Below, piece after piece: positions 13,189-54,205 of a stretch of 64,000 nt of DNA. Source of the DNA: Malacoraja senta (Eukaryota). Numbering within the stretch: position 1 is the first letter of the stretch; the number at the start of each line of letters is the position of its first letter. The stretch spans positions 5,210,001-5,274,000 of the forward strand of contig CM075990.1 of the NCBI GenBank assembly GCA_038087875.1, given 5' to 3'. Under the pieces are notes generated by a model that was not told where the DNA came from, did no database searches, and saw only the letters and a program-made list of their open reading frames with translations. Made by a program: the position numbers and the translations under genes.

Positions 13189-14724
13189 TCATCTGGATAA
13201 ACAGGGTCTGATTAGGAACAGTCAATGGATTTGTGCCTGGAAGGTCATGTTTGACTAATCTTCTTGAATTTTTTGAAGAGGTTACTAGGGAAATTGATGA
13301 GGATAAAGAAGTGGATGTTGTCTATATGGAGTTCAGTAAGGCCTTTGACAAGGTTCCACAAGAAAGCTTTTGGTGTGCTGGCCTTTATAAATCAGAGCAT
13401 TGAGTATAGAAGTTGGGATGTAATGTTAAAATTGTACAGGGCATTGGTGAGGCCAATTCTGGAATATGATGTACAATTCTGGTCACCACATGGAAGGTTG
13501 GTTAAGAAGGTTCAATTGTTGGGTATTAGTAGTGGAGTAGCAAGATGGATTCAACAATGGCAGAGAGTAATGGTGGATAACTGTTTGTCAGGTTGGTGGC
13601 CAGTGACTAGTGGGGTGCCTCAGGGATCAGTCTGAAGAAGGGTTTCGGCCCGAAACGTTGCCTATTTCCTTTGCTCCATAGATGCTGCTGCACCCGCTGA
13701 GTTTCTCCAGCATTTTTGTGTACCTCAGGGATCTGTGTTGGGTCCACTGTTGTTTGTCATATACATCAATGATCTGGATGATGGTGTGGTAAATTGGATT
13801 AGTAAGTATGCAGATGATACTAAGATAGGTAGTGTTGTGGATAATGAAGTAGATTTTCAAAGTCTACAGAGAGATTTAGGCCATTTGGAAGAGTGGGCTG
13901 AAAGATGGCAGATGGAGTTTAATGCTGATAAGTGTGAGGTGCTACATCTTGGTAGGACAAATCAAAATAGGACATACATGGTAAATGGTAGCGAATTGAG
14001 GAATGCAGTAGAACAGAGGGATCTAGGAATAACTGTGCATAGTTCCCTGAAGGTGGAATCTCATGTAGATAGGGTGGTAAAGAAAGCTTTTGGTGTGCTG
14101 GCCTTTATAAATCAGAGCATTGAGTATAGGAGTTGGGATGTAATGTTAAAATTGTACAGGGCATTGGTGAGGCCAATTCTGGAATATGATGTACAATTCT
14201 GGTCGCCAAATTTTAGGAAAGATGTCAACAAAATAGAGAGAGTACAGAGGAGATTTACTAGAATGTTGCCTGGGTTTCAGCACCTAAGTTACAGAGAAAG
14301 GTTGAATAAGGTAGGTCTTTATTCTTTGGAGCACAGAAGGTTAAGGGGGGATTTGATAGAGGTCTTTAAAATGATGAGAGGGATAGACAGAGTTGACGTG
14401 GATAAGCTTTTTCCATTGAGAGTAGGGAAGATTCAAACAAGAGGACATGATTTGAGAATTAAGGGACAAAAGTTTCGGGGTTACATGAGGGGGAACTTCT
14501 TTACTCAGAGAGTGGTAGCTGTGTGGAATGAGCTTCCAGTAGAAGTGGTGGAGGCAGGTTCGATTTTATCATTTAAAAATAAATTGGATAGGTATATGGA
14601 TGGGAAAGGAATGGAGGGTTATGGTCTGAGTGCAGGTAGATGGGACTAGGTGAGAGTAAGTGTTCGGCACGGACTAGAAGGGACGAGGTGGCCTGTTTCC
14701 GTGCTGTAATTGTTACATGGTTAT
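13189..14724 (+). mobile_element. CR1/HER1 LINE, 5'-truncated (RT domain to 3' end)
   Basis: ORF 13735-14649 with YADD motif and CR1 C-terminus; interrupts the 48-bp array. Confidence 0.92.
13629..13722 (+). mobile_element. 94-bp hammerhead module inserted in the CR1
   Basis: CTGAAGAAGGGTTTCGGCCCGAAACGTT core; flanked by the 11-bp duplication CCTCAGGGATC (13618-13628, 13723-13733). Confidence 0.85.
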
Positions 14725-15240
14725 AAGTGCAGTTTCATACCACTTGAAGCAGGGTGCAAGGCCACCAAATTCAAGTGTAGTTTCATACCACTTGAAGCAG
14801 GGTGCAAGGCCACTAAATTCAAGTGCAGTTTCCTACCACTTCAAGCAGGGTGCAGGGCCACCAAACTCAAATGCAGTTTCAAGCTACTTCAAGCAGGGTG
14901 CAAGGCCATCAAATTCAAGTGCAGTTTCATGCCACTTCAAGCAGGGTGCAAGGCCACCAAATTCAAGTGCAGTTTCATGCCATTTCAAGCACGGTGCAAG
15001 GCCACAAAATTCAAGTGCAGTTTCATGCCACCAAGCAGGGTGCAAGGCCACCAAACTCAAGTGCAGTTTCCTACCACTTCAAGCAGGGTGCAAAGCCACC
15101 AAACTCAAGTGCAGTTTCCTACCACTTCAAGCAGGGTGCAAGGCCACCAAACACAAGTGCAGTTTCATACAATTTCAAGCAGGGTGCAAGGCCACCAAAT
15201 TCAATTGCAGTTTCATACCATTTCATGCAGGGTGAAACCA
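14725..15240. repeat. 48-bp minisatellite, about 11 copies (about two more at ~13100-13188)
   Basis: Unit AAGTGCAGTTTCATACCACTTCAAGCAGGGTGCAAGGCCACCAAATTC; explains the 16-aa periodic ORFs in all three plus frames. Confidence 0.95.
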
Positions 15241-15649
15241 CCATAAAACCACCATAAAACCACACAAACCACCACAAAACACCACACTCACAGTTCAGTA
15301 GACATTCAGTGTGTTCAGTTGATTCACAGTTCAGACAGAGTCGTGACCTCTCCCTCTCCCATCTTGCAGAGACTGAGCCACACCCACACTTCTGGGTTTT
15401 ATAATACCCCCCCCCCCTCCCACCAGAAGGGGCGTGGCCTTCATGGCATGATTGACAGGAGAGAGATTCTCAACATTTTTAAAACACTAATAACACTTTT
15501 ATTTATCATTGATGGGAAGAATCCTCTGCACCTGATGAGCGGAGGGGGACTGAGTAAGATGGCCAAAAAGCACAGCCGTAAGTGGTAGCGTTTTATCTAA
15601 AATCAATATACAGTGCAAACAGGAAGATGTTTAGACTTTTAAGCATTTG

Positions 15650-20909: not shown

Positions 20910-21907
20910 CTTGTTTTGGGTGCTTAGATCATGGGGACACCTTCTGTTGTTTCTCAAGTCAATAGACTGGGTTGTTAATCTCCTTCTCCGCCCAGAGCTG
21001 AACAGCCAGAAACCTGCCTCTCAGAACAGCGAAGAGTTAGTTTGGTCCTGGCTGGAACAGAAATTTGAATTTAAATGAATTTAGAAAATTAATGGGTATA
21101 AATCACCCTGGAGCAACAAGGTTTACTGCTGGTACACAAAAATGCTGGAGAAACTCAGCGGTTGCAAGGGTTTTTGCGGAAGGCAGACATGGGGGGAGAT
21201 GGGAAGATGTGGCGAGTGGCGAGTGTCGCCACATCTTCCCATCTCCCCCCCTGTCTGCCTTCCGCAAAGACCGCTCCCTCCGTAACTCCCTTGTCAATTC
21301 TTCCCTTCCCTCCCGTACCACACCCTCCCCGGGCACTTTCCCTTGCAACCGCAAGAGATGCAACACTTGTCCCTTCACCTCCCCCCTCGACTCCATTCAA
21401 GGACCCAAGCAGTAGTTCCAGGTGCGACAGAGGTTCACCTGCATCTCCTCCAACCTCATCTATTGCATTCGCTGCTCTAGATGTCAGCTGATCTACATCG
21501 GTGAGACCAAGCGTAGGCTTGGCGATCGTTTCGCCGAACACCTCCGCTCGGTCCGCAATAACCAACCTGACCTCCCGGTGGTTCAGCACTTCAACTCCCC
21601 CTCCCATTCTGTATCTGACCTCTCTGTCCTGGGTCTCCTCCATGGCCAGAGCGAGCAACACCGGAAATTGGAGCAACAGCACCTTGGGGAGTCTGCACCC
21701 TGGGGGCATGAACATTGAATTCTCCCAATTTTGTTAGCCCTTGCTATATTTAAGAGGGAGTTAGATGTGGCCCTTGTGGCTAAAGGGATCAGGGGGTATG
21801 GAGAGAAACATAGCAACATAGAAAGATAGAAATTAGGTGCAGGAGTAGGCCATTCGGCCCTTCGAGCCTGCACCGCCATTCAATATGATCATGGTTGATC
21901 ATCCAAC

Positions 21908-24900
21908 TCAGTATCCCGTACCTGCCTTCTCTCCATACCCTCTGATCCCTTTAGCCACAAGGGCCACATCTAACTCCCTCTTAAATATAGCCAATGAACT
22001 GGCCTCGACTACCCTCTGTGGCAGAGAGTTCCAGAGATTCACCACTCTCTGTGTGAAAAAAGTTCTTCTCATCTCGGTTTTAAAGGATTTCCCCCTTATC
22101 CTTAAGCTGTGACACCTTGTCATGGACTTCCCCAACATCGGGAGCAATCTTCCTGCATCTAGCCTGTCCAACTCCTTAAGAATTTTATAAGTTTCTATAA
22201 GATCCCCTCTCAATCTCCTAAATTCTAGAGAGTATAAACCAAGTCTATCCAGTCTTTCTTCATAAGCCAGTCCTGACATCCCAGGAATCAGTCTGGTGAA
22301 CCTTCTCTGCACTCCCTCTATGGCAATAATGTCCTTCCTCAGATTTGGAGACCAAAACTGTACGCAATACTCCAGGTGTGGTCTCACCAAGACCCTGTAC
22401 AACTGTAGTAGAACCTCCCTGCTCCTATACTCAAATCCTTTTGCTATGAAAGCTAACATACCATTCGCTTTCTTCACTGCCTGCTGCACCTGCATGCCTA
22501 CTTTCAATGACTGGTGTACCATGACACCCAGATCGCGCTGCATCTCCCCTTTTCCTAGTCGGCCACCATTTAGATAATAGTTTGCTTTCCTGTTTTTGCC
22601 ACCAAAATGGATAACCTCACATTTATCCACATTATACTGCATCTGCCAAACATTTTCCCACTCACCCAGCCTATCCAAGTCACCTTGCAGTCTCCTAGCA
22701 TCCTCCTCACAGCTAACACTGCCCCCCAGCTTAGTGTCATCCGCAAACTTGGAGATATTGCCTTCAATTCCCTCATCCAGGTCATTAATATATATTGTAA
22801 ATAGCTGGGGTCCCAGCACTGAGCCTTGTGGTACCCCACTTGTCACTGGTTGCCATTGTGAAAAGGACCCGTTTACTCCTACTCTTTGCTTCCTGTTTGC
22901 CAGCCAGTTCTCTATCCACATCAATACTGAACCCCCAATGCCATGTGCTTTAAGTTTGTATACTAATCTCTTATGTGGGACCTTGTTGAAAGCCTTCTGG
23001 AAGTCCAAATACACCACATCCACTGGTTCTCCCCTATCCACGCTACTAGTTACATCCTCGAAAAATTCTATAAGATTCGTCAGACATGATTTACCTTTCG
23101 TAAATCCATGCTGACTTTGTCCAATGATTTTACCACTTTCCAAATGTGCTGCTATCCCATCTTTAATAACTGACTCTAGCAGTTTCCCCACTACCGATGT
23201 TAGACTAACTGGTCTGTAATTCCCCGTTTTCTCTCTCCCTCCCTTCTTAAAAAGTGGGGTTACGTTTGCTACCCGCCAATCCTCAGGAACTACTCCAGAA
23301 TCTAAAGAGTTTTGAAAGATTATTACTAATGCATCCACTATTTCTGGAGCTACTTCCTTAAGTACTCTGGGATGCAGCCTATCTGGCCCTGGGGATTTAT
23401 CGGCCTTTAATCCATTCAATTTACCCAACACCACTTCCCGACTAACCTGGATTTCACTCAATTCCTCCAACTCCTTTGACCCGCGGTCCCCTGCTATTTC
23501 CGGCAGATTATTTATGTCTTCCTTAGTGAAGACAGAACCAAAGTAGTTATTCAATTGGTCCGCCATATCCTTGTTCCCCATGATCAACTCACCTGTTTCT
23601 GACTGCAAGGGACCTACATTTGTTTTAACTAATCTCTTTCTTTTCACATATCTATAAAAACTTTTGCAGTCAGTTTTTATGTTCCCTGCCAGTTTTCTTT
23701 CATAATCTATGTTTCCTTTCCTAATTAAGCCCTTTGTCCTCCTCTGCTGGTCTCTGAATTTCTCCCAGTCCTCCGGTATGCTGCTTTTTCTGGCTAATTT
23801 GTACGCATCATCCTTCGCTTTGATACCATCCCTGATTTCCCTTGTTATCCACGGATGCACTACCTTCCCTGATTTATTCTTTTGCCAAACTGGGATGAAC
23901 AATTTTTGTGGTTCATCCATGCAGTCTTTAAATGTCTTCCATTGCATATCCACCGTCAACACTTTTAGAATTAATTGCCAGTCAATCTTGGCCAATTCAC
24001 GTCTCATACCCTCAAAGTTACCTTTCTTTAAGTTCAGAACCATTGTTTTTGAATTAACAATGTCACTCTCCATCCTAATGAAGAACTCAACCATATTATG
24101 GTCACTCTTGCCCAAGGGGGCACGTACAACAAGACTGCTAACTAACCCTTCCTCATTACTCAATACCCAGTCTAAAATAGCCTGCTCTCTCGTTGGTTCC
24201 TCTACATGTTGATTTAGATAACTATCCCGCATACATTCCAAGAAATCCTCTTCCTCAGCACCCCTGCCAATTTGATTCACCCAATCTATATATAGATTGA
24301 AGTCACCCATTATAACTGTTTTGCCTTTGTCGCACGCATTTCTAATTTCCTGTTTGATACCATCTCCAACTTCACTACTACTGTTAGGTGGCCTGTACAC
24401 AACACCCACCAGCGTTTTCTGCCCCTTAGTGTTTCGCAGCTCTACCCATACCGATTCCACATCCTCCAAACTAATGTCCTTCCTTTCCATTGCGTTAATC
24501 TCCTCTCTAATCAGCAACGCTACCCCACCTCCTTTTCCTTTCTCTCTATCCCTCCTGAATATTGAATATCCCTGGATGTTCAGCTCCCAGCCTTGGTCAC
24601 CCTGGAGCCATGTCTCCGTGATCCCAACTATATCATAGTCATTAATAGCTATCTGCACATTCAACTCATCCACCTTATTACGAATGCTCCTTGCATTGAG
24701 ACACAAAGCCTTCAGGCTTGTTTTTACAACACTCTTACCCCTTATACAATTATGTTGAAAAGTGGCCCTTTTTGATTTTTGCCCTGGTTTTGTCTGCCTG
24801 CCACTTTTACTTTTCACCTTGCTACCTATTGCTTCTACCCTCATTTTACACCCCTCTGTCTCTACGCTCACACATTTAAGAAACCCTTTCCCTTTAACTC

Positions 24901-28570: not shown

Positions 28571-30585
28571 GCTCATCAAACACTGATTTTGTTTATGTCA
28601 GTGGTTCTAGACCTTTCAGTATTATCAGTAAAATGTGCTGGAGCTTTGAAAACAATTTATTCGTATCTTGCACCTGGCAAAATCACAAAAATACAATCGC
28701 AAACAAAAAAATAATTTCCAGATGCAGAAATTTAATTTCTTTACTTTGAATCGAAGCACATTCTTTACTTGGCACAGACCCCATATTTTGCCAAGCCCAA
28801 CCCTTTTATTAAGTAAATAGAAACTTTACTCCACGAGATGATTTTGTGTGTATGACACTGCGTTTGAAGCTGCCCCAAGATTAAACAGGAGCTGTGGTGA
28901 TTGCTGTTCACTGAAATGTCCGACTTGATGCAAAGCAGTTTACACACTTAAATGTACAATATTATGACCATAAGTGAAGGTTACAGACGGTTTTTGCACA
29001 GGTCCTGCATATATTTATTATATTTTTAGTTGTTACTAAAAATAGTTCAGGGCACCTCTCAAGTTGTGGTTTCAAGGTTCCTTATAAGAAGAAAGGAAAG
29101 ATTAAGTTATTTTAGGTTTGCCAAGCACTTTGGTACAAAGTCATTCACATAGAAGCACGTGCAAAAACAGTGGGGCGGCAAGTGTTAGGTCATTATTCCA
29201 CTCTATCAACATTTGTTGTGCAAGTGTCTAGGTTTTGCAAAATGTTTGCATTCAAAAACGTGTCATCTGATCTTCCCCTCCCAGTGTTTGGGTCACAAGG
29301 TTGGCCAGAGACTGACTGGAAGAGGATGGACTTTAGAGTCCATATATTTAGGAGGTAGGAGCAGGGAGCAACCCGCAACTGGATCCGTGATGACGTTAGA
29401 ATGGTGCATCAGGGGTCGGCAAGGTGCCGGTTGATAACAGCATTGTACACTAGAGATCACAGGGCGGGTGGTGAAGATGGAATTCTGCGTTTGGGAAAGG
29501 GGCTGAAGAACGATTGTTTCCTTCAAGTATTTTTGGGGGGGGGGGTTAAGGGGGAGAGGGGAAGGATACAAGAAAATAGGGGAAGGAGCAGGTCATCTAT
29601 CGCAGTCGCTGCCTCAAAAAGGCTGCCAACATCATCAAGGACCCACACCATCCCGGCCACACACTCATCTCTCGGCTGCCATCAGGTAGAAGGTACAGGA
29701 GCCTGAAATCTGGTCCATCCAGGTTCAGGAACAGCTACTTCCCCACAGCCATCAGGCTATTAAACACAACATCAAACATACTCTGATCTATAACAGCCTA
29801 CTGCACTTTAACTGTTTATCTATGTGTATATATATATGGTCTATGGTATATAGACACACTGATCTGTTCTGTATTTACGCCTACAATATTCTGTTGTGCT
29901 GCAGCAAGCAAGAATTTCATTGTCCTATCTGGGACACATGAAAATAAAAACCTTCTCTCTCTCTCTCTCTCATCAGGCCCTTCAACCTTGTACCATCATT
30001 TAATATCTTCGTTGTATATCTATGTAATGATCCAGGTCAGGTCGGGGGGGGGGGGGGGGGAGTTCCCCCCGCCACGGGTACCATGTAATCCCGTGCAACC
30101 TGCTCCATGGTCAGATAGTCGGCGACTAAACCGTCTCCCCCGCCTGGTTTGCCAGGTGACGAGGGGGCTGTGGACCCCCGGCAGGACTAATAACAAGACC
30201 TGTCAAAAGGCGGATGTGCTTCTAGTGAGCCAACGGCCATCCACACTTCAGTAGAAGTTGCGATCACTGTCGTACATAGCATTGTAAGGCACTGTGACCG
30301 TTGATAGTCTCCAATCTCCAGTCTGGCTCCAATCTCTTCTGTGCCACTTTTCCATACCCCTCTATTTATCACTCTATCAAATACTTGTCCACCTCCACTT
30401 TAAATAGCTCTCATGATCCAACTTCTCCCACCCATCAGGGCAAGCGATTGCAGAGATTTACTACCCTCTGTGAGGTAAACTCTACACAACGTACTCCAGT
30501 TTTAAATGGCCGGCCCTTGCATTGTAGCCATGTCCGATTGTTTATGACTCTCCCAACATCTACCCTGTCAAAGCCTGCTTAGCAT

Positions 30586-30815
30586 CTTGTGTAGGAAGGA
30601 ACTGCACATGCTGGTTTAAGCCAAAGATAGACACAAAACGCTGGAGTAACTCAGCGGGACAGGCAGCATCTCTGGAGAGAAGGAATGGGTGATGTTTCGG
30701 GTCGAGACCCTTCTTCCAGTCTGAAGAAGGGTGTCGAACCGAAACGTCACCCATCCCTTATCTCCAGAGATGCTGCCTGTCCCGCTGAGTTACTCCAGCG
30801 TTTTGTGTCTATCTT
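30586..30815. mobile_element. Palindromic Penelope-derived hammerhead element (second family)
   Basis: Inverted arms ~30624-30716 and ~30720-30815; 11-bp TSD CTGCTTAGCAT (30575-30585, 30816-30826). Confidence 0.88.
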
Positions 30816-31632
30816 CTGCTTAGCATATTATCTGTTTGAATAAGGTCTCCCCTCCTTTCTTCTAAACTCAAGAAGTACACGTTCAAATCACAAAGTCTCT
30901 CTTGGTGGGATAGCCTCCTTATCCCTGGACTTAGCCTGGTGAATGTCCTTAGTATTGCCTCAAATATTTCTACAGTATATCTATTTTTAGGTAAGGGGAG
31001 CAAAGTTGTAAGCAGTGTTCCAGGCGAGGCCTCAGCTACACTCCGCACAATTGCAACAACACCTCCCTATTTTTAATCTCCAATCCCTTTGCAACAAAGG
31101 CCAGAATACTGTTTACCTTCTTAATCACTTGTTGGAAGGACTGGAACCACTTGGGAGATTGCTAGGTTGTGTTGGTGGTTGGGAAAGGGCTGCAGAACAG
31201 GGTGGCTGGAGAGTATGGGAATTGGTTTGTCCAGTACGGGACCGCCCTTGTCCCGTATTTGACTGCTACTACCCAGATCGCCGCATCCGGCCCCGCCTCA
31301 CCCGTCCCGACATAGGGCGAGGCAGCAGCAGCGCCTCGCCCGTGGCCCCGTCGGTCGGCAGCCCGGGCAGCTTTCCGGACTTCAGACCTTCGTTTAACGC
31401 CGACACCACCACCCCTCCTTCTCATGGCTGATCATCGGTTCATGAGTTGGATGGGGTGCTGGACTTTGCAAGCGACATCGCCCGGGCCAAAACTCTGCAG
31501 CTGGCCCACCGGCTGGGCTTTGTGTGCTGTCCAGCACCCGGGCCAACTCATCATTCACCCAGCCACGGCTAAGTCGGTCAACGAATTGCCGTCGGGAATT
31601 TGTCCTGTATTTTGACCTTTTGTCTCTTATTT

Positions 31633-31936
31633 ACTTACTTACTGCCTATTATGCCTCCTGGCATGTAGGGCAGCAACAAAGGTCCTCCACTCAGTAGTGT
31701 TGATTCCTTCAGTTGCTGTTTCGGTAACATATTTGTTTTACGAGACAGGGTTGTTAGCCCTGTGCTCAACCTCCAACCTGGAGGACCAGTGGATCGCTCT
31801 TCGTCTCGCCTCTACCCTTCGACCTGTCCAGCATGGGAGACCCTAACAGGAGACGAATCTCCCGCTGGCATAGCTCTAGGGGTCACTGAGACACACAAGC
31901 TCCCCGACCACGACAAGGTTGCAATCCAACGGGGAG
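31633..31936 (-). mobile_element. RTE-derived bipartite SINE, full length
   Basis: 13-bp TSD TTGTC(T/C)CTTATTT (31620-31632, 31937-31949); RTE-like 5' UTR head ACCTTGTCGTGGT; (TAAG)n tail. Confidence 0.85.
31790..31936 (-). ncRNA. Predicted HDV-like ribozyme with extended P4
   Basis: P1 CUCCCCG/CGGGGAG, P2 UGGAUUGC/GCGAUCCA, P3 ACC/GGU, L3 UUGUCGU, J4/2 CGAA (candidate catalytic C at 31803). Confidence 0.7.
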
Positions 31937-34325
31937 TTGTCCCTTATTTGGGAGTGAGAAAGTTGGCAACCCTACCGGAGAGGGTGCTGGTAGTTGGGAG
32001 CGCCAGGGCCTGTGATCGGGGAACACAGGGTTGATGGCACACAAGGAATGAAGGATTACGCTTGGAATGTTTTCTCTGGAACGCCGAAGTTTGCGATAAG
32101 ATCTGATAGAAAAATACAAAACTATGAGAGGCATAGATAGGGTAGACAGTCAAAATCTTTTTTACCCCAGGATGTAAAAATCAAGTACTGGAGGGTATTG
32201 CTTTAAGGTGAGAGGGGCAAAGTTTAAAGGAGATGTGTGGGGCATGTGTTTTTTTACACAGAGGTGATCAGTGCCTGGGAGGTGTTGCTTCAAGCACTTA
32301 GTGGCATTTATAAGACTTTTGGATATGCACATGGATATGCAGAGAATGGAGGGATATGGGTTATGTGCAGGTAGATAAGTGATGGGATTGGCATCATGTC
32401 TGGCACAGCCATTGTGGGCCGAAGGGCCTGTTCTTGTGCTGCACTGTTGTATGTTCTAAAGTTCTCCCACCCAGCCTACAGGTGCTTCTGGCCAGTGCTT
32501 AGAAATTTGTTGATGGCTCTGAACAATTTCTAAGCCTTGGGCCTTTGGAATAAACCGAACAATCACTGCAAGGACAGGGATGGGGCCATTGGATCGGTAT
32601 TTCCAGCAGCAGGCCAGGCACAGATGACTGAGTGGATTTCTCTCTTTCCCTGCGATTTCATGAAGGGAATTTTTCTCGTTTCATGCTTCTTTGCAGTCCT
32701 GCAACGTACAGAGTACAATGGTTAGTTGTTTATATTACAGGCTCCCAAGCCTAAAGGCAAAATACTGTGATGAAAACAGTAGGTAGAAACCGCTGTTGGT
32801 GAAGTGCTCATGTGACCACCACTGTCGTATCCAAACAAGCTTCTTCCGCTCTTTAATGAGGATATTTTTTAATGAGATACCTGCTAACATAAACTGGTGG
32901 CCTGAAAACAAGTTGCGGCAGGGTGGAATATTGTCTTAATCCAGAGGTTAAACAAGCTATGATTTTATTCCTTAGAGCGCAGGAGGATGAGGGGTGATCT
33001 TAGAGAGTAAGTCTTATAAGACTATTTCTATTAAGAGAGAGTTAGATAGAGCTCTAGGGGCTAGTGGAGTCAAGGGATATGGGGAGAAGGCAGGCACGGG
33101 TTATTGATAGGGGACGATTAGCCATGATCGCAATGAATGGCGGTGCTGGCTCGAAGGGCCGAATGGCCTCCTCCTGCACCTATTTTCTATGTTTCTATGT
33201 TTCTAAGACCATGTCAAGAATAGATAGAGTGAATGCACAGAGCCTCTTGTCTTGAGTAGGGGAATCAAGAACCAGAGGGCATAGGCTTAAGGTGAGGGGG
33301 GAAAGAGTTAATAGGAACCTGAGGGGCAACTTTTTTTTACAGAAAGGATGGTAGGTATATGTATTGAGCTGCCGGAGGAAGTAGTTGAGGCAGGTACTTT
33401 CACAACGTTTAAGAAACAATTAGACATGTACATGGATGGGATAGGTTTAGAGGGATATGGGCCAAATGCAGGCAGGTGGGACTAGTGGAGATAGGTACTG
33501 TTATGGATGTTGGTTGGAGTGGGAAAGTTGGGCCGAAGGGTTCGTTTCCAAGCTGAACGAATAAATGACTCTATTACAGAGAATGGCAATATTACACTTG
33601 TTTCTACATGTCTTAGAGCCAGGAAATTATTTTCCCGACTTTTCAAAGGGGATTTATATTTATTATAGCACCTTTCACAGGCATATGGCCCCTCCGAATA
33701 ATATCAATAGCAGTGCGTGAACCACAGTTCATCTCCGGCACTCTGACTGAAACCTTTGCCCTCACTGAGATCTGTGATCAAATGTATCCACACACTTTTA
33801 TTTAGTTTAGTTTAGATTAGTGATACAGCATGAAAACAGTCCCTTCGGCCCACCGAGTCCGCGCCGACCAGCGATCACCTGTACACTAGTTTTATCCTAC
33901 ACACTAGGAACAATTTACAGAAGCCAATTAATCTACAAACCTGCCATCTTTGGAATGTTGGAGGAAACCGGAGCTCCCGGAGAAACCCCACGGCATCACA
34001 GGGAGAACGTACAAATCAGTACAGGCAGGATGGTGGGTGTAGTCCGGATCACCTCTTATCTATGTGCTTTGCTCGAGGCAAGATGGTGGCCACTCTCAGT
34101 GTCCCAACCACAGGATTATTCCAGGAACTGCTGTTGACTCACCCACACTTCACACTCAAGGGGAGACTCCATCAACTTTTCCTTCAGCCATGTGGAGTTT
34201 TATGAACAACACTAAAATTAATGCCAAGAAACTGCTGCAAAGTATTTCCCCGGCCTGTGTTACTGTAAACAAAAATAGTAGATGGTTTAATTTGATATTG
34301 CTGCACTCCAGGTTGAAACCTCCAG

Positions 34326-37300
34326 GGGAGACTTTAAACTAGAATGGTTGGGGGGAGGGACTCAAATAGAGAAAGCTATTAGACAGTGTGTGAGGCAGGA
34401 GGCAGAGAAGGAAAGCACTCAGACCCAACATGTAGGGGGGAAAGAAGAAAACAATAATAAACAGAGAATAAGAGGTGGTGGGGTTCTCAAATGGGTGAGC
34501 AGAGAAACAGAGGGGTGTAAAATGCGGGCGGAAGCAATAGGTAGCAAGGTGAAAAGTAAAAGTGGCAGGCAGACAAATCCAGGGCAAAAATCAAAAAGGG
34601 CCACTTTTCAACATAATTGTATAAGGGGTAAGAGCGTTGTAAAAACAAGCCTGAAGGCTTTGTGTCTCAATGCAAGTAGCATTCGTAATAAGGTGGATGA
34701 GTTGAACGTGCAGATAGCAATTAATAATTATGATATAGTTGGGATCACGGAGACATGGCTCCAGGGTGACCAAGGCTGGGAGCTGAACATCCAGGGATAT
34801 TCAATATTCAGGAGGGATAGAGAGAAAGGAAAAGGAGGTGGGGTAGCGTTGCTGGTTAGAGAGGAGATTAACGCAGTGGAAAGGAAGGACATTAGCTTGG
34901 AGGATGTGGAATCGGTATGGGTAGAGCTGCGAAACACTAAGGGGCAGAAAACGCTGGTGGGTGTTGTGTACAGGCCACCTAGCAGTAGTAGTGAAGTTGG
35001 GGATGGCATCAAACAGGAAATTAGAAATGCGTGCAACAAAGGCAAAACAGTTATAATGGGTGACTTCAATCTACATATAGATTGGGTGAATCAAATTGGC
35101 AGGGGTACTGAGGAAGAGGATTTCTTGGAATGTATGCGGGATAGTTATCTAAACCAACATGTAGAGGAACCAACGAGAGAGCAGGCTATTCTAGACTGGG
35201 TATTGAGTAATGAGGAAGGGTTAGTTAGCAGTCTTGTTGTGCGTGCCCCCTTGGGCAAGAGTGACCATAATATGGTTGAGTTCTTCATTAGGATGGAGAG
35301 TGACATTGTTAATTCAGAAACAACGGTTCTGAACTTAAAGAAAGGTAACTTTGAGGGTATGAGACGTGAATTGCCCAAGATTGACTGGCAATTAGTTCTA
35401 AAAGGGTTGACGGTGGATATGCAATGGAAGGCATTTAAAGACTGCATGGATGAACTACAAAAATTGTTCACCCCAGTTTGGCAAAAGAATAAATCAGGGA
35501 AGGTAGTGCATCCGTGGATAACAAGGGAAATCAGGGATAGTATCAAAGCAAAAGATGATGCGTACAAATTAGCCAGAAAAAGCAGCATACCAGAGGACTG
35601 GGAGAAATTCAGAGACCAGCAGAGGAGGATAAAGGGCTTAATTAGGAAAGGGAAAATAGATTATGAAAGGAAACTGGCAGGGAACATAAAAACTGACTGC
35701 AAAAGTTTTTATAGATATGTGAAGAGAAAGAGATTAGTTAAAACAAATGTAGGTCCCTTGCAGTCAGAAACAGGTGAATTGATCATGGGGAACAAGGTTA
35801 TGGCGGACCAATTGAATAACTACTTTGGTTCCGTCTTCACTAAGGAAGACATAAATAATCTGCCAGAAATAGCAGGGGGCCGCGGGTCAAAGGAGATGGA
35901 GGAACTGAGTGAAATCCAGGTTAGTCGGGAAGTGGTGTTGGGTAAATTGAATGGATTAAAGGCCGATAAATCACCAGGGCCAGATAGGCTGCATCCCAGA
36001 GTACTTAAGGAAGTAGCTCCAGAAATAGTGGATGCATTAGTGATAATTTTTCAAAACTCTTTAGATTCTGGAGTAGTTCCTGAGGATTGGAGGGTAGCAA
36101 ACGTAACCCCACTTTTTAAGAAGGGAGGGAGAGAGAAAACGGGGAATTACAGACCAGTTAGTCTAACATCGGTAGTGGGGAAACTGCTAGAGTCAGTTAT
36201 TAAAGATGGGATAGCAGCACATTTGGAAAGTGGTGAAATCATTGGACAAAGTCAGCATGGATTTACGAAAGGTAAATCATGTCTGACGAATCTTATCGAA
36301 TTTTTCGAGGATGTAACTAGTAGAGTGGATAGGGGAGAACCAGTTGATGTGTTGTATCTGGACTTTCAGAAGGCTTTCGACAAGGTACCACATAAGAGAT
36401 TAGGATACAAACTTAAATCACACGGTATTGGAGGTTCAGTATTGATGTGGATAGAGAACTGGCTGGCAAACAGGAAGCAAAGAGTAGGAGTAAACGAGTC
36501 CTTTTCACAATGGCAGGCAGTGACTAGTGGGGTACCGCAAGGCTCAGTGCTGGGACCCCAGCTATTTACGATTTATATTAATGAACTGGATGAGGGAATT
36601 GAAAGCAACATCTCCAAGTTCGCGGATGACACTAAGCTGGGGGGCAGTGTTAGCTGTGAGGAGGATGCTAGGAGACTGCAAGGTGACTTGGATAGGCTGG
36701 GTGAGTGGGCAATGTTTGGCAGATGCAGTATAATGTGGATAAATGTGAGGTTATCCACTTTGGTGGCAAAAACGGGAAGGCAGACTATTATCTAAATGGT
36801 GGCCGATTAGGAAATGGGGAGATGCAGCGAGACCTGGGTGTCATGGTACACCAGTCATTGAAAGTAGGCATGCAGGTGCAGCAGGCAGTGAAGAAAGCGA
36901 ATGGTATGTTGGCTTTCATAGCAAGAGGATTTGAGTATAGGAGCAGGGAGGTTCTACTGCAGTTGTACAGGTCTTGGTGAGACCACACCTGGAGTATTGC
37001 GTACAGTTTTGGTCTCCAAATCTGAGGAAGGACATTATAGCCATAGAGGGAGTGCAGAGAAGGTTCACCAGACTGATTCCTGGGATGTCAGGACTTTCAT
37101 ATGAAGAAAGACTGGATAGACTTGGCTTATACTCGCTAGAATTTAGGAGATTGAGAGGGGATCTTATAGAAACGTACAAAATTCTTATGGGGTTGGACAG
37201 GCTAGATGCAGGAAGATTGTTCCCGATGTTGGGGAAGTCCAGGACAAGGGGTCACAGCTTGTGGCTAAGGGGATCAGGGGGTATGGGAGAGAAGGCAGGT

Positions 37301-37410
37301 ACGGGATACTGAGTTGGATGATCAGCCATGATCATATTGAATGGCGGTGCAGGCTCGAAAAGCCGAATGGCCTACTCCTGCACCTATTTTCTATGTATCT
37401 ATGTATCTAT
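34326..37410 (+). mobile_element. CR1 LINE, ORF2-length copy with frameshifts
   Basis: ORFs 34348-36795, 36705-36980 and 36974-37312 are consecutive parts of APE-RT; internal deletion near the 3' end; CR1 tail. Confidence 0.95.
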
Positions 37411-47876: not shown

Positions 47877-48477
47877 AAGAACAGACATTTTGCATTTTTT
47901 TAACCAAGATGTTACAAAGGAGAGTTTCAATTGCCCCAAAACAGCAGATGTGGTACAGAACTGGGTGAGAAGCCAAACGCAGAGGACAGTGATGTACAGT
48001 TAGTGTTTCAGATTTCGAGAAGTATACAGTGAGGTCTCCGATAGTTCTTAGGAGGACCACTGCTCTCTTTGAAACATAGCAATGATCTGCATCTGGGTTT
48101 TCATTTTGATGACACAAGGAAATACTAATGTGTTGTATGCATTGTGCTTGGTGGTAGCCTTCAGGAGGAGAGAAATGGGCAAGTGCTGCTGTAATTGAAC
48201 ACAAAGTGATGACGTTGGTCGGAAGCACGTAGAAAGCCAATCTAAACTAAACTGTACAAGTTTGGGGAAGATGGGGAAACAATGAGGTATTTTAAAAGGT
48301 TTGATAAGATGAGAACTTTTTTGAGTTGTAAGGATTCAGGTCGCTTGAAAGGGTGTTGGAAGCAGGTACAATAACAAGATTGAAAGTAGAAGTAAATGCA
48401 CACAGAAGGAGGATTACATTTGTAAGACCACCGGGAAATGGTGGGGAATGGAATTACTGGAATACTTCTTTCAAAGA

Positions 48478-48623
48478 CTTCTCCGTAGATTGTCACCTTG
48501 TCGTGGTGGAGAAGCTTGTGTGGACCTGAGATCCTGAGAGCGATGCCGTCTGGAGCTATGCTCCTGGCAGGGCCACCCATGGCGGTAAGGTCGAGGGGGA
48601 GGTCTCTGACAAAGAGCAATCCA
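48478..48623 (+). ncRNA. Predicted HDV-like ribozyme with extended P4
   Basis: P1 CUUCUCC/GGAGAAG, P2 UAGAUUGU/GCAAUCCA (one mismatch), P3 ACC/GGU, L3 UUGUCGU, P4 GACCU/AGGUC, J4/2 CAAA (candidate catalytic C at 48610). Confidence 0.7.
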
Positions 48624-48901
48624 ACCAAGACCTCAACGGTGGAACAGGCGGAGTATGATGGCTGACTTTAGTGGAGCGTCACAACGGCTGGGAAGGTGGA
48701 TGAAGGCTGCAGTAGAAAAGGGTCTCCGGTCGTCTTGGACTCCATGCCACTGGATCCTGACCCAGACCTGTCAAGGACTGTGGGGTGGCTGTCTGTGCAC
48801 CAGTCTCCCCACTTTAAACAAAGTCACGCACAGGCTTCACCCATATAGGGAATAGCAACCCTGGAGACACCCATGGTCAAGGGGGCCTAAGTAAAGTAAA
48901 G
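48478..48901 (+). mobile_element. RTE-derived bipartite SINE, full length
   Basis: Perfect 11-bp TSD TCTTTCAAAGA (48467-48477, 48902-48912); RTE-like head; (TAAAG)n tail. Confidence 0.87.
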
Positions 48902-49414
48902 TCTTTCAAAGAGTCATCATGTTCGAATGTGTTGATGGACCTCTCTCTTTGGCCTTATCTCTATGATTCTCTATCTGAATGCTTTGTTTTCACCAGAAAA
49001 GTAGTCAGTTTATTGTTGTGTGCACAAGTATGGGTTAGTTTAGTTTGGAGATACACCATGGAAACAAGCTCTTCAGCCCAGTCTGAAGAAGGGTCTCTAC
49101 CCAAAATGTCACCTATCCACGTTTGCCCGAAATGTTGCCTGACCTGCTAAGTTACTCCAGGACTTCGTGCCTTTCGTGTATTAACCAGCACATGCAGTTC
49201 CTTGTCTACACAATAATGGTGTCGACCTGCTTCACCATGAATAGGGGACAGTATAATTTGTGGTGGTTTATAGAGTCAAAGAGGATAGGATATCAGTTCA
49301 TTTATGTTTCGATGTTTTGGAGCATGGGTGCTCATGGCTTGGCAGTCATATTGAAGGCTCTTAATGTGGGCATGGGGGCTGAGCAATTCAAGAGACTTAC
49401 CTGATTGGGGTATT

Positions 49415-52400
49415 AGATACATAGATACATAGAAAATAGGTGCAGGAGTAGGCCATTCGGCCCTTCGAGCCTGCACCGCCATTCAATATGATCATGGCTG
49501 ATCATCCAACTCAGTATCCCGTACCTGCCTTCTCTCCATACCCCCTGATCCTTTAGCCACAAGGGCCACATCTAACTCCCTCTTAAATATAGCCAATGAA
49601 CTGGCCTCAACTACCCTCTGTGGCAGAGAGTTCCAGAGATTCACCACTCTCTGTGTGAAAAAGTTTTTCCTCATCTCGGTCTTAAAGGATTTCCCCCTTA
49701 TCCTTAAGCTGTGACCCCTTGTCCTGGACTTCCCCAACATCGGGAACAATCTTCCTGCATCTAGCCTGTCCAACCCCATAAGAATTTTGTACGTTTCTAT
49801 AAGATCCCCTCTCAATCTCCTAAATTCTAGCGAGTATAAGCCAAGTCTATCCAGTCTTTCTTCATATGAAAGTCCTGACATCCCAGGAATCAGTCTGGTG
49901 AACCTTCTCTGCACTCCCTCTATGGCTATAATGTCCTTCCTCAGATTTGGAGACCAAAACTGTACGCAATACTCCAGGTGTGGTCTCACCAAGACCCTGT
50001 ACAACTGCAATAGAACCTCCCTGCTCCTATACTCAAATCCTCTTGCTATGAAAGCCAACATACCATTTGCTTTCTTCACTGCCTGCTGCACCTGCATGCC
50101 TACTTTCAATGACTGGTGTACCATGACACCCAGGTCTCGCTGCATCTCCCCGTTTCCTAATCGGCCACCATTTAGATAATAGTCTGCCTTCCCGTTTTTG
50201 CCACCAAAGTGGATAACCTCACATTTATCCACATTATACTGCATCTGCCAAACATTTGCCCACTCACCCAGCCTATCCAAGTCACCTTGCAGTCTCCTAG
50301 CATCCTCCTCACAGCTAACACTGCCCCCCAGCTTAGTGTCATCCGCAAACTTGGAGATGTTGCTTTCAATTCCCTCATCCAGCTCATTAATATAAATTGT
50401 AAATAGCTGGGGTCCCAGCACTGAGCCTTGCGGTACCCCACTAGTCACTGCCTGCCATTGTGAAAAGGACCCGTTTACTCCTACTCTTTGCTTCCTGTTT
50501 GCCAGCCAGTTCTCTATCCACATCAATACTGAACCCCCAATACCGTGTGATTTAAGTTTGTATCCTAATCTCTTATGTGGTACCTTGTCGAAAGCCTTCT
50601 GAAAGTCCAGATACAACACATCCACTGGTTCTCCCCTGTCCACTCTACTAGTTACATCCTCGAAAAATTCTATAAGATTCGTCAGACACGATTTACCTTT
50701 CGTAAATCCATGCTGACTTTGTCCAATGATTTCACCACTTTCCAAATGTGCTGCTATCCCATCTTTAATAACTGACTCTAGCAGTTTCCCCACTGCCGAT
50801 GTTAGACTAACTGGTCTGTAATTCCCCGTTTTCTCTCTCCCTCCCTTCTTAAAAAGTGAGGTTACGTTTGCTACCCTCCAATCCTCAGGAACTACTCCAG
50901 AATCTAAAGAGTTTTGAAAAATTATCACTAATGCATCCACTATTTCTGGAGCTACTTCCTTAAGTACTCTGGGATGCAGCCTATCTGGCCCTGGTGATTT
51001 ATCGGCCTTTAATCCATTCAATTTACCCAACACCACTTCCCGACTAACCTGGATTTCACTCAGTTCCTCCATCTCCTTTGACCCGCGGCCCCCTGCTATT
51101 TCCGGCAGATTATTTATGTCTTCCTTAGTGAAGACGGAACCAAAGTAGTTATTCAATTGGTCCGCCATATCCTTGTTCCCCATGATCAATTCACCTGTTT
51201 CTGACTGCAAGGGACCTACATTTGTTTTAACTAATCTCTTTCTCTTCACATACCTATAAAAACTTTTGCAGTCAGTTTTTATGTTCCCTGCCAGTTTTCT
51301 TTCATAATCTATTTTCCCTTTCCTAATTAAGCCCTTTGTCCTCCTGTGCTGGTCTCTGAATTTCTCCCAGTCCTCTGGTATGCTGCTTTTTCTGGCTAAT
51401 TTGTACGCATCATCTTTTGCTTTGATATTATCCCTGATTTCCCTTGTTATCCACGGATGCACTACCTTCCCTGATTTATTCTTTTGCCAAACTGGGATGA
51501 ACAATTTTTGTAGTTCATCCATGCAGTCTTTAAATGCCTTCCATTGCATATCCACCGTCAACCCTTTTAGAACAAAGAGATCAGATACAGAATCAAGCCC
51601 TCAAGATCGCAGCCGAAGAACTGGCTCCAGTTTTGCAGTTCATTTTCCAACAATAGCTTGACTCAGGTGATGTTCCGCTGGATTGGAGGAAGGCTAACAT
51701 CACTCCTCTCTTTAAGAAAGGTTCAACCACCAACCCAGCGAATTATCGTCCTGTTTCATTAACAAGTACTTGCTGCAAATTACTGGAGCATGTAATTGAT
51801 AGTAATCTGATGCGACACGTGAGCAAACATAATATTCTTGCTGACAACCAACATGCATTTAGGAGGCATAGATCATGTGAGTCTCAGCTTATCCTGACGA
51901 CAAATGACCTGGCCAAACATCTTGATGGTAATGTCATCACGGATTTAGTAGTGCTGGACTTTTCTAAAGCATTTGATGTCACCCCACACCAGAGACTGCT
52001 TCGGAAGCTTGACTTCTATGGTATTCGTTCCAACACGAAACGATGGATTTCCAGTTTCCTGACAAAACGTCTTCAGCGTGTGTGTGTGAACGGAAAGAGC
52101 TCCAATTGGCATCCAGTGTTGAGTGGTACACCTCAGGGCACAGTACTTGGCCCACATCTGTTTTTGCTTTACATAAACGACATCCATGAAAAAGTCGCAT
52201 GCACGACCAGACTATTCGCTGATGATTGTTTGCTGTACCGTCCAATTAAGTCAGCTGATGATGAAGATGCTCTCCAAAAGGACCTCGATACAATGGTTGA
52301 GTGGTCACACCAATGGGGCATGCAGTTCAACCCTTCCAAATGTGAAACCATGCGTGTCACCAGAAAGAGGAATCCAGGCAAAACATCGTACAATATACTT

Positions 52401-54205
52401 GGTACCACCCTTGAAGAATCCAAACAAACCAAGTATCTTGGCATCAAATTGCAGAATGACCTGCGTTGGAATGGTCAGACTCATCATGCAACGGTGAAAG
52501 CAACAGGTGTCCTAAATTTTCTGAGGCGCAACTTTCATCATTGTTCAACTTCTGTCAAGGAGAAGCTATACTTCACCCTCGTTAGACCTCATTTGGACTA
52601 CGCAGTTGCATGCATGGGACCCATACACAAATAAAAACATTTCTTCCATCGAACGGGTCCAAAGACAGGCAGCTCGATTTGTTACTAACACCTATGAGAG
52701 AGAAGCGAGTGTTACCAAACTTTTGATTTCTCTGGGGTGGAACCCTCTCCAAGACAGACGTGAAGCTCACCGTTTGACCTGTTTTTACAAAATGTTAAAT
52801 GGTCAGCTCAACATAGATTACAAGACCTACACCAAACCCAAACCAATTAGGAGCAGACGAGGACATTCGATCCAATTTGAGATTCCAGCTGCCAAGACAG
52901 ATGTGTGCAGCAATTCATTCTTCCCCCGCACAATTAAAGCATGGAATAATCTTCACCCTACCATAGTGACCCAACCAGATGCAACTAAATTTAAGGTAGC
53001 TCTTTCTTCCCAAAAACCCTTTCTGGCTTAAGTCCTCCCTCCACCACCTCCAGTTTAAATTCCATTTGGAATATTTTGGAGGACCAAGAAACCAAGAACC
53101 AAGAACTAATTGCAGGTCAATCTTGGCCAATTCACGTCTCATACCCTCAAAGTTACCTTTCTTTAAGTTCAGAACCGTTGTTTCTGAATTAACAATGTCA
53201 CTCTCCATCCTAATGAAGAACTCAACCATATTATGGTCACTCTTGTCCAAGGGGGCACGCACAACAAGACTGCTAACTATCCCTTCCTCATTACTCAATA
53301 CCCAGTCTAGAATAGCCTGCTCTCTTGTTGGTTCCTCTACATGTTGGTTTAGATAACTATCCCGCATACATTCCAAGAAATCCTCTTCCTCAGCACCACT
53401 GCCAATTTGATTCACCCAATCTATATGTAGATTGAAGTCACCCATTATAACTGTTTTGTCTTTGTTGCACGCATTTCTAATTTCCTGTTTGATGCCATCC
53501 CCAACTTCACTACTACTGCTAGGTGGCCTGTACACAACACCCACCAGCGTTTTCTGCCCCTTAGTGTTTCGCAGCTCTACCCATACCGATTCCACATCAT
53601 TTAAGCTAATGTCCTTCCTTTCCACTGCGTTAATCTCCTCTCTTACCAGCAACGCTACCCCACCTCCTTTTCCTTTCTCTCTATCCCTCCTGAATATTGA
53701 ATATCCCTGGATGTTCAGCTCCCAGCCTTGGTCACCCTGGAGCCATGTCTCCGTGATCCCAACTATATCATAATCATTAATAGCTATCTGCACGTTCAAC
53801 TCATCCGCCTTATTACGAATGCTCCTTGCATTGAGACACAAAGCCTTCAGGCTTGTTTTTACAACGATCTTACCCCTTATACAATTATGTTGAAAAGTGG
53901 CCCTTTTTGATTTTTGCCCTGGATTTGTCTGCCTGCCACTTTTACTTTTCACCTTGCTACCTATTGTTTCCGCCCACATTTTACACCCCTCTGTTTCTCT
54001 GCTCACCCATTTAAGAACCCCACCACCTCTTATTCTCTGTTTATTATTGTTTTCTTCTTCCCCCCCTACATGTTGGGTCTGAGTGCTTTCCTTCTCTGCC
54101 TCCTGCCTCACACACTGTCTAATAGCTTTCTCAATTTGAGTTTCTCCCCCCAACCATTCTAGTTTAAAGTCTCCCCAGTAGCCTTTGCAGATCTCCCCGC
54201 CAGGG
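49415..54205 (-). mobile_element. CR1 LINE, ORF2-length, split by an RTEX-like insertion
   Basis: ORF 52915-54294 (APE half) and 49492-51561 (RT half) join exactly across the insertion. Confidence 0.95.
51574..53101 (+). mobile_element. RTEX-like non-LTR retrotransposon, 5'-truncated
   Basis: RT motifs SCESQL, LDFSKAFD, GTPQGTVLGP and FADD; C-terminal SFFPRTIKAWNNL; (CCAAGAA)n tail; AGAAC duplicated at the junctions. Clade assignment is tentative. Confidence 0.75.

Follow-up and report, generated by a model that had tools for sequence, protein, structure and literature searches.

In this study, we analyzed a 64,000-nt stretch of the Malacoraja senta genome (hereafter the window) and focused on a repeat on its minus strand at positions 31633-31936, a non-autonomous bipartite RTE element of 304 nt with a tetranucleotide-repeat tail. 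Sequence comparison indicated that this element, which we refer to as family A, is a deletion copy of an RTE retrotransposon, and that its first 146 bases quite probably constitute an HDV-like ribozyme cutting just before position 31936. The boundaries of the element, its parent LINE and the covariation of three helices (P1, P2 and outer P4) could be read directly from the sequence, and they are presented first.

Boundaries and parentage of the element

The element is flanked by a target-site duplication (TSD), whose 5'-side copy (31937-31949, 13 nt) and 3'-side copy (31620-31632) are identical at 12 of 13 positions, with one mismatch. The initial annotation had used this duplication to place the 5' end on the first C of P1. 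Independently of the TSD, reads and contigs that carry empty sites of the host repeat joined position 31619 directly to 31937, so that the 5' end of the element is 31936, the first C of P1, as had been claimed. The insertion target was itself another high-copy repeat (31570-31632 and 31937-31975), and its empty sites were abundant in the reads; we presume that the end of this host repeat resembles the terminal repeat of a DNA transposon.

A sharp 5' boundary was also observed in other copies of family A and in three further families (B, C and D) described below. First, 27 of the 30 fetched family A loci, including the copy in the window, aligned from nt 1, and TSDs were detectable in 27 of the 29 loci examined: 20 of these stopped exactly before C1, four ended 1-3 nt inside C1 and three ended 2-5 nt outside it, all of which is to be read with the bias to complete 5' ends that arises because family A and B copies were the top matches to a full-length query. 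Second, in family D, where the 3' end was found in 17 of 30 loci, five of the 12 detectable TSDs ended exactly at C1, five ended 2-6 nt inside and two outside. Finally, the agreement among copies fell to background from position +1 to -1 in each family (26/28 versus 9/28 in A, 19/21 versus 7/21 in B, 17/22 versus 9/22 in C and 18/30 versus 14/30 in D), the change being least sharp in D. The copy in the window is identical to the family A consensus across nt 1-155.

We then examined the origin of the element. In its own genome (1.94 Gb), family A was found at no fewer than 887 candidate places, and the 40 that were scored were 97-100% identical. When the genome was searched for PF20049, which we take to be a domain characteristic of RTE ORFs, 150 matches were scored, and 20 stretches around them were fetched. 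In three of these (L072, L074 and L081), a 2.8-4.6-kb LINE has nt 1-245 of the element at its 5' end (91-97% identity) and carries nt 245-304 at its 3' end (92-97%), and these shared ends surround an RTE ORF that bears PF20049. Four more of the 20 stretches had the 3' end in common with family A. Loose read ends at 31692 marked the same internal-deletion junction, which divides the part of the element downstream of the proposed ribozyme into the rest of the 5' UTR of the partner LINE (31692-31790, minus strand) and the last codons of the RTE ORF together with the 3' end and the tail (31633-31691, minus strand). Judged by this comparison, the family A element is an internally deleted RTE LINE that retains the first 245 and the last 60 nt.

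The initial annotation had named the element an RTE-type SINE. Its RTE origin was confirmed by the three LINE copies, whereas the SINE part of the name did not hold: we also considered a strict SINE with a tRNA, 5S or 7SL head, but nt 1-245 are entirely LINE 5' end and no Rfam match to such a head was obtained. What we found instead were colinear 5' and 3' ends with the middle deleted, many near-identical copies, TSDs of their own and a microsatellite tail, that is, the features of a bipartite non-autonomous LINE, a class named by Kojima in 2018 (PMC5786205). Pattern searches for the 3' end of the parent LINE and for further families returned mutated copies only, and a search of RNA records with part of the parent LINE's ORF listed no record carrying it. 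In general look, the repeats resemble those known from cartilaginous fishes.

A probable HDV-like fold starting at the first nucleotide

The predicted fold of the window copy lies on the minus strand and involves P1 (element nt 1-7/31-37), P2 (10-16/140-146), P3 (18-20/28-30) and a candidate catalytic C at nt 134, which corresponds to window position 31803. The two strands of P1 (31930-31936 and 31900-31906) form seven Watson-Crick (WC) pairs out of seven, so the perfect pairing from the first C reported in the initial annotation was reproduced, and the HDV-family rule predicts cleavage immediately 5' of 31936. P2 (31921-31927 with 31791-31797) comprises six WC pairs and one GU pair. A 3-bp WC P3 with its 7-nt L3 occupies 31907-31919, in which the counterparts of U20 and G25 (CPEB3 numbering) are U31916 and G31911; P2, P3 and this U- and G-containing loop were all found at HDV spacing, in agreement with the annotation. 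The J1/4 bases C and U (31898-31899) are the predicted P1.1 partners, giving G31914-C31899 beside U31915.U31898. The P4 domain (31804-31897), previously put at about 90 nt, measured 94 nt, with an outer helix formed by 31892-31888 and 31808-31812. J4/2 (31798-31803) starts with C31803, the putative general-acid cytosine equivalent to C75. The four-base linker claimed for this junction is present, but two extra bases follow it before P2; together with one unpaired A before P3, these bases render the P2/P3 junction irregular in family A, and irregularities there were also seen in families B and D.

Two further features of this region were conserved across families. One is the 5x4 internal loop that forms the P4 base (31897-31893 and 31807-31804), to which the HDV model assigns no clear role; the other consists of the two bases that precede the putative catalytic C, for which this model gives no reason.

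To evaluate the fold, we compared four RTE-type families of the M. senta genome that are only ~72-80% alike. Family B is a second RTE LINE family, whose homologous 5' end leads into an ORF start of its own. Families C and D were obtained with an internal pattern that contained neither the P1 nor the P2 5' strand (94 matches versus 0 in the control); neither was linked to its own ORF, and they are classed as RTE by the homology of their 5' ends. A looser internal pattern gave 1276 matches versus 2 in the control, the first 100 listed belonging mostly to family D. The consensuses were built from 28 of 30 loci for A, 21 of 30 for B, 22 of 30 for C and 30 of 30 for D, the other loci having failed the anchoring pattern or belonged elsewhere. 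Because MAFFT placed the ends of P1 and P2 wrongly between families, the core served as the anchor for counting pairs.

In all four families, P1 is a 7-bp helix and its first C is the first base of the element. Over the four consensuses, which are a small and related sample, P1 was WC-paired at 28 of 28 positions with two-sided changes at five of its seven pairs, and when P1 strands were exchanged between families only 2-6 of the seven pairs were kept. Of 28 pairs in the first seven positions of P2, 26 were WC and 2 GU, with two-sided changes at three positions; for outer P4, 18 of 20 were paired, again with two-sided changes at three positions. On the other hand, the core was nearly constant. 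P3 was near-invariant (11 of 12 WC, with an A.A mismatch in family B). L3 was 7 nt long, contained U20 and G25 in all four families and varied only at its fourth base (position 23), and the linker read C-N-A-A throughout (N being G, G, U and A), only the base after C varying. The P1.1 candidate bases, G-C plus U.U, were likewise invariant in all four families, these being the bases paired in the model of the initial annotation; a two-sided change appeared only against CPEB3. P1.1 and P3 being nearly invariant, they show no covariation of their own within the four families. The annotation had proposed a covariation analysis of RTE 5' ends and a variant HDV-like fold there; carried out on these four families, the analysis supported such a fold starting at nt 1, as suggested by the covariation of P1, P2 and outer P4 combined with the boundary at C1.

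The window itself contains a second element with the same 5' motif, a non-autonomous family D copy on the plus strand (48478-48902, ~425 nt) with a 10-nt TSD ending at 48477; in its first P2 pair, G is replaced by A. When both strands of the 64-kb window were searched, an HDV-type descriptor matched only twice, at the element starting at 31936 and at this family D copy. An Rfam scan of positions 29000-35000 with E values up to 10 gave no HDV-family match, though the HDV fold is not defined by matching a library model. An old and decayed family E (L147 and L165-L187) apparently has the same layout with a different, apparently compensated P2; it was kept out of the counts as too decayed. In 12 loci of a BovB-like RTE lineage with a different 5' UTR (L066 and L230-L241), no similarity to the 5' motif of families A-D was found, the true 5' end probably not having been reached there.

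Proposed catalysis and competing readings

From this fold we infer P1.1, catalysis and the route of transcription. Copies of the element would be transcribed by read-through from host promoters, and the RNA would fold into a double pseudoknot in which P1.1 is a single G-C pair beside U.U. C31803 would then serve as the general acid and the U.G pair of L3 would position Mg2+, so that cleavage before 31936 could free a 5'-OH RNA beginning at P1 from the host transcript. The protein of the partner LINE would recognise the retained 3' end and insert the RNA in trans, generating a TSD of 10-13 nt. We propose that release by cleavage, followed by insertion of an RNA that starts with P1, would make new copies begin on the first P1 base or slightly inside it.

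A different reading, which we consider rather unlikely but the most serious of the alternatives, is that the fold is HDV-derived but has lost its catalytic activity, in family A at least, and has been kept as a structural cap (an exonuclease block or a site where the RTE protein or the ribosome binds), the 5' end being set by an internal promoter at C1. The RNA reads are consistent with it. In a single run of raw RNA data (137 reads, ~6% of the run, the species perhaps being another), no pile-up of read ends was listed at 31936, and nine reads passed 31936 into unlike flanks, their strand not being resolvable. Folding also lends it some support, since in the pseudoknot-free fold of family A C31803 was trapped by pairing in an alternative P4 register, with a probability of 0.99 for the element alone and 0.23 with 60 nt of native flank. 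This register lies ~2 kcal/mol below the homologous one and was not conserved in families B-D. There are precedents as well: the first 77 nt of L1Tc are described as serving as promoter as well as ribozyme, and the start site coincides with the cleavage site (PMC3185411), and the R2 template RNA is reported to be guarded from 5' decay by an HDV fold (PMC13708176). However, while the helices varied over families of such divergence, the C-N-A-A pattern of the linker stayed invariant, as did the U.G positions and the bases of P1.1, and a promoter would need no perfect P1 from nt 1 in all four families. Both points speak against this reading.

The fate of the candidate catalytic C in existing copies was also visible in the reads. 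It was lost in 5 of 19 RNA reads, about a quarter, and at ~11% of the contig depth in X22, the former likely through CpG decay. The base lies in a CpG (31803-31802) in families A and B, so one transition would inactivate many inserted copies.

Thermodynamic folding as used here cannot score the pseudoknot: a plain MFE fold (z = -2.35 for the whole element) recovered six of the seven P1 pairs but neither P2 nor P3, as expected for a pseudoknot. In a second alternative, already raised in the initial annotation as the finding that would speak against the HDV fold, L3 pairs with the bases around 31803 so that P2 is extended by this helix, which together with P1 would give a different fold or else a stable off-state. 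Such pairing is not trivial to dismiss, as 18 of the 20 helix cells were pairable across the four families, the constrained fold reached -53.1 kcal/mol against a free minimum of -56.2, and the two invariant bases before the C, which the HDV model leaves unexplained, would find a place. However, the helix showed no two-sided change: both variable positions changed on one side only, leaving two uncompensated mismatches (A.A in B and U.U in C), and its ensemble probability in family A was 0.03 or less. We thus regard it as improbable as a replacement for the double pseudoknot; the conserved L3/J4-2 complementarity might act as an off-state. Finally, chance complementarity in a GC-rich 5' end is hardly credible: the HDV-type descriptor was composed post hoc, after the motif had been seen, but it matched 0 of 2000 dinucleotide shuffles for each of the four family consensuses, the compensatory changes were family-specific, and in families C and D the P1 3' strands were seen first and the complementary 5' strands were found afterwards at the element ends.

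Relation to known ribozymes and retroelements

The general idea behind the proposed ribozyme is already known. HDV-like ribozymes at RTE 5' ends with cleavage at the 5' junction were published by Ruminski et al. in 2011, as cited in PMC5786205, PMC3774820 and PMC6765202, and Kojima has already linked such ribozymes to bipartite RTEs. According to the citing papers, the RTE ribozymes resemble the present case in clade, in a fold at the extreme 5' end, in predicted cleavage at the 5' junction and in the proposed release from a co-transcript, whereas we found no description there of a G-C P1.1 combined with C1-G37 and a 94-nt P4. The bipartite elements RTE-N2_Lch, RTESINE1/2, WALLSI3 and Bov-A likewise consist of the 5' and 3' ends of a parent RTE (214 + 70 bp in RTE-N2_Lch versus 245 + 60 here); a ribozyme is only speculated in that account to explain their retained 5' ends, and we found no structure analysis of them there (PMC5786205).

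The closest structural likeness was to mammalian CPEB3, whose L3 is given as U20 U21 C22 A23 C24 G25 U26, with C22-G37 and U21.U38 forming P1.1 (bioRxiv 10.1101/2022.09.22.508989; PMC4836649). Families A-D share with it a 7-bp P1, a predicted P1.1 of one WC pair plus U.U and a 7-nt L3 with U20, U21, C24, G25 and U26, the loops being identical apart from the P1.1 base and position 23. In contrast, the WC pair is swapped here (G22-C in place of C22-G37), the element starts with C, its P4 is much longer, and it is a multi-copy retroelement rather than a single intronic locus. The one-pair P1.1 of CPEB3 is reported to show compensatory rescue in pairwise mutagenesis (PMC9901934).

Other systems share parts of the variant architecture. 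L1Tc of Trypanosoma cruzi is described as cleaving at C1 and having a one-pair P1.1 (PMC3185411), in line with the comparison drawn in the initial annotation, and its ribozyme is common to an autonomous LINE and an internally deleted partner, NARTc, as the predicted one is here; on the other hand, L1Tc/NARTc belong to the Ingi clade rather than RTE, their ribozyme spans 77 instead of 146 nt, and its activity was shown for L1Tc and is predicted here. The HDV-like ribozymes found in C. briggsae and in Ackermannviridae are reported to be fast, to need the catalytic C and G25 and to have a P1.1 of U:A plus U:U or C:U (PMC13635239), which is similarly non-standard in its pyrimidine-pyrimidine pair and differs in its WC pair (U:A versus G-C). 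In R2 ribozymes, P2 and P3 mismatches are tolerated and P4 is described as very variable, long or absent (PMC3774820). Our literature search did not find the G-C P1.1 variant or this RTE lineage described, and Ruminski et al. may already cover it. Overall, we tentatively raise the possibility, with doubt somewhat outweighing confidence, that a vertebrate RTE lineage carries an active HDV-like subtype so far unrecognised, with a C1-G start, a reversed G-C P1.1 and a large P4.

These results provide a testable structure for the sharp 5' ends of RTE elements and their deletion derivatives, and would widen the HDV-like consensus to a G-C P1.1, which was missed here by the Rfam models; earlier ribozyme descriptors were also regarded as too restrictive in a trypanosomatid study (PMC4035085). 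If such an active subtype exists, the genome would hold thousands of self-cleaving sites able to cut host transcripts in sense orientation. With no fewer than 887 candidate places for family A and the 1276 pattern matches, active copies could truncate host pre-mRNAs. RTE UTRs are being engineered for RNA-based gene insertion (PMC13708176), for which a self-cleaving 5' module would matter.

Elsewhere in the window, we observed a 48-nt tandem array at 14651-15285, long LINE-like fragments with 94-99% identity at 21800-24900, 34300-37400 and 49400-54200, and many short hairpin-forming repeats.
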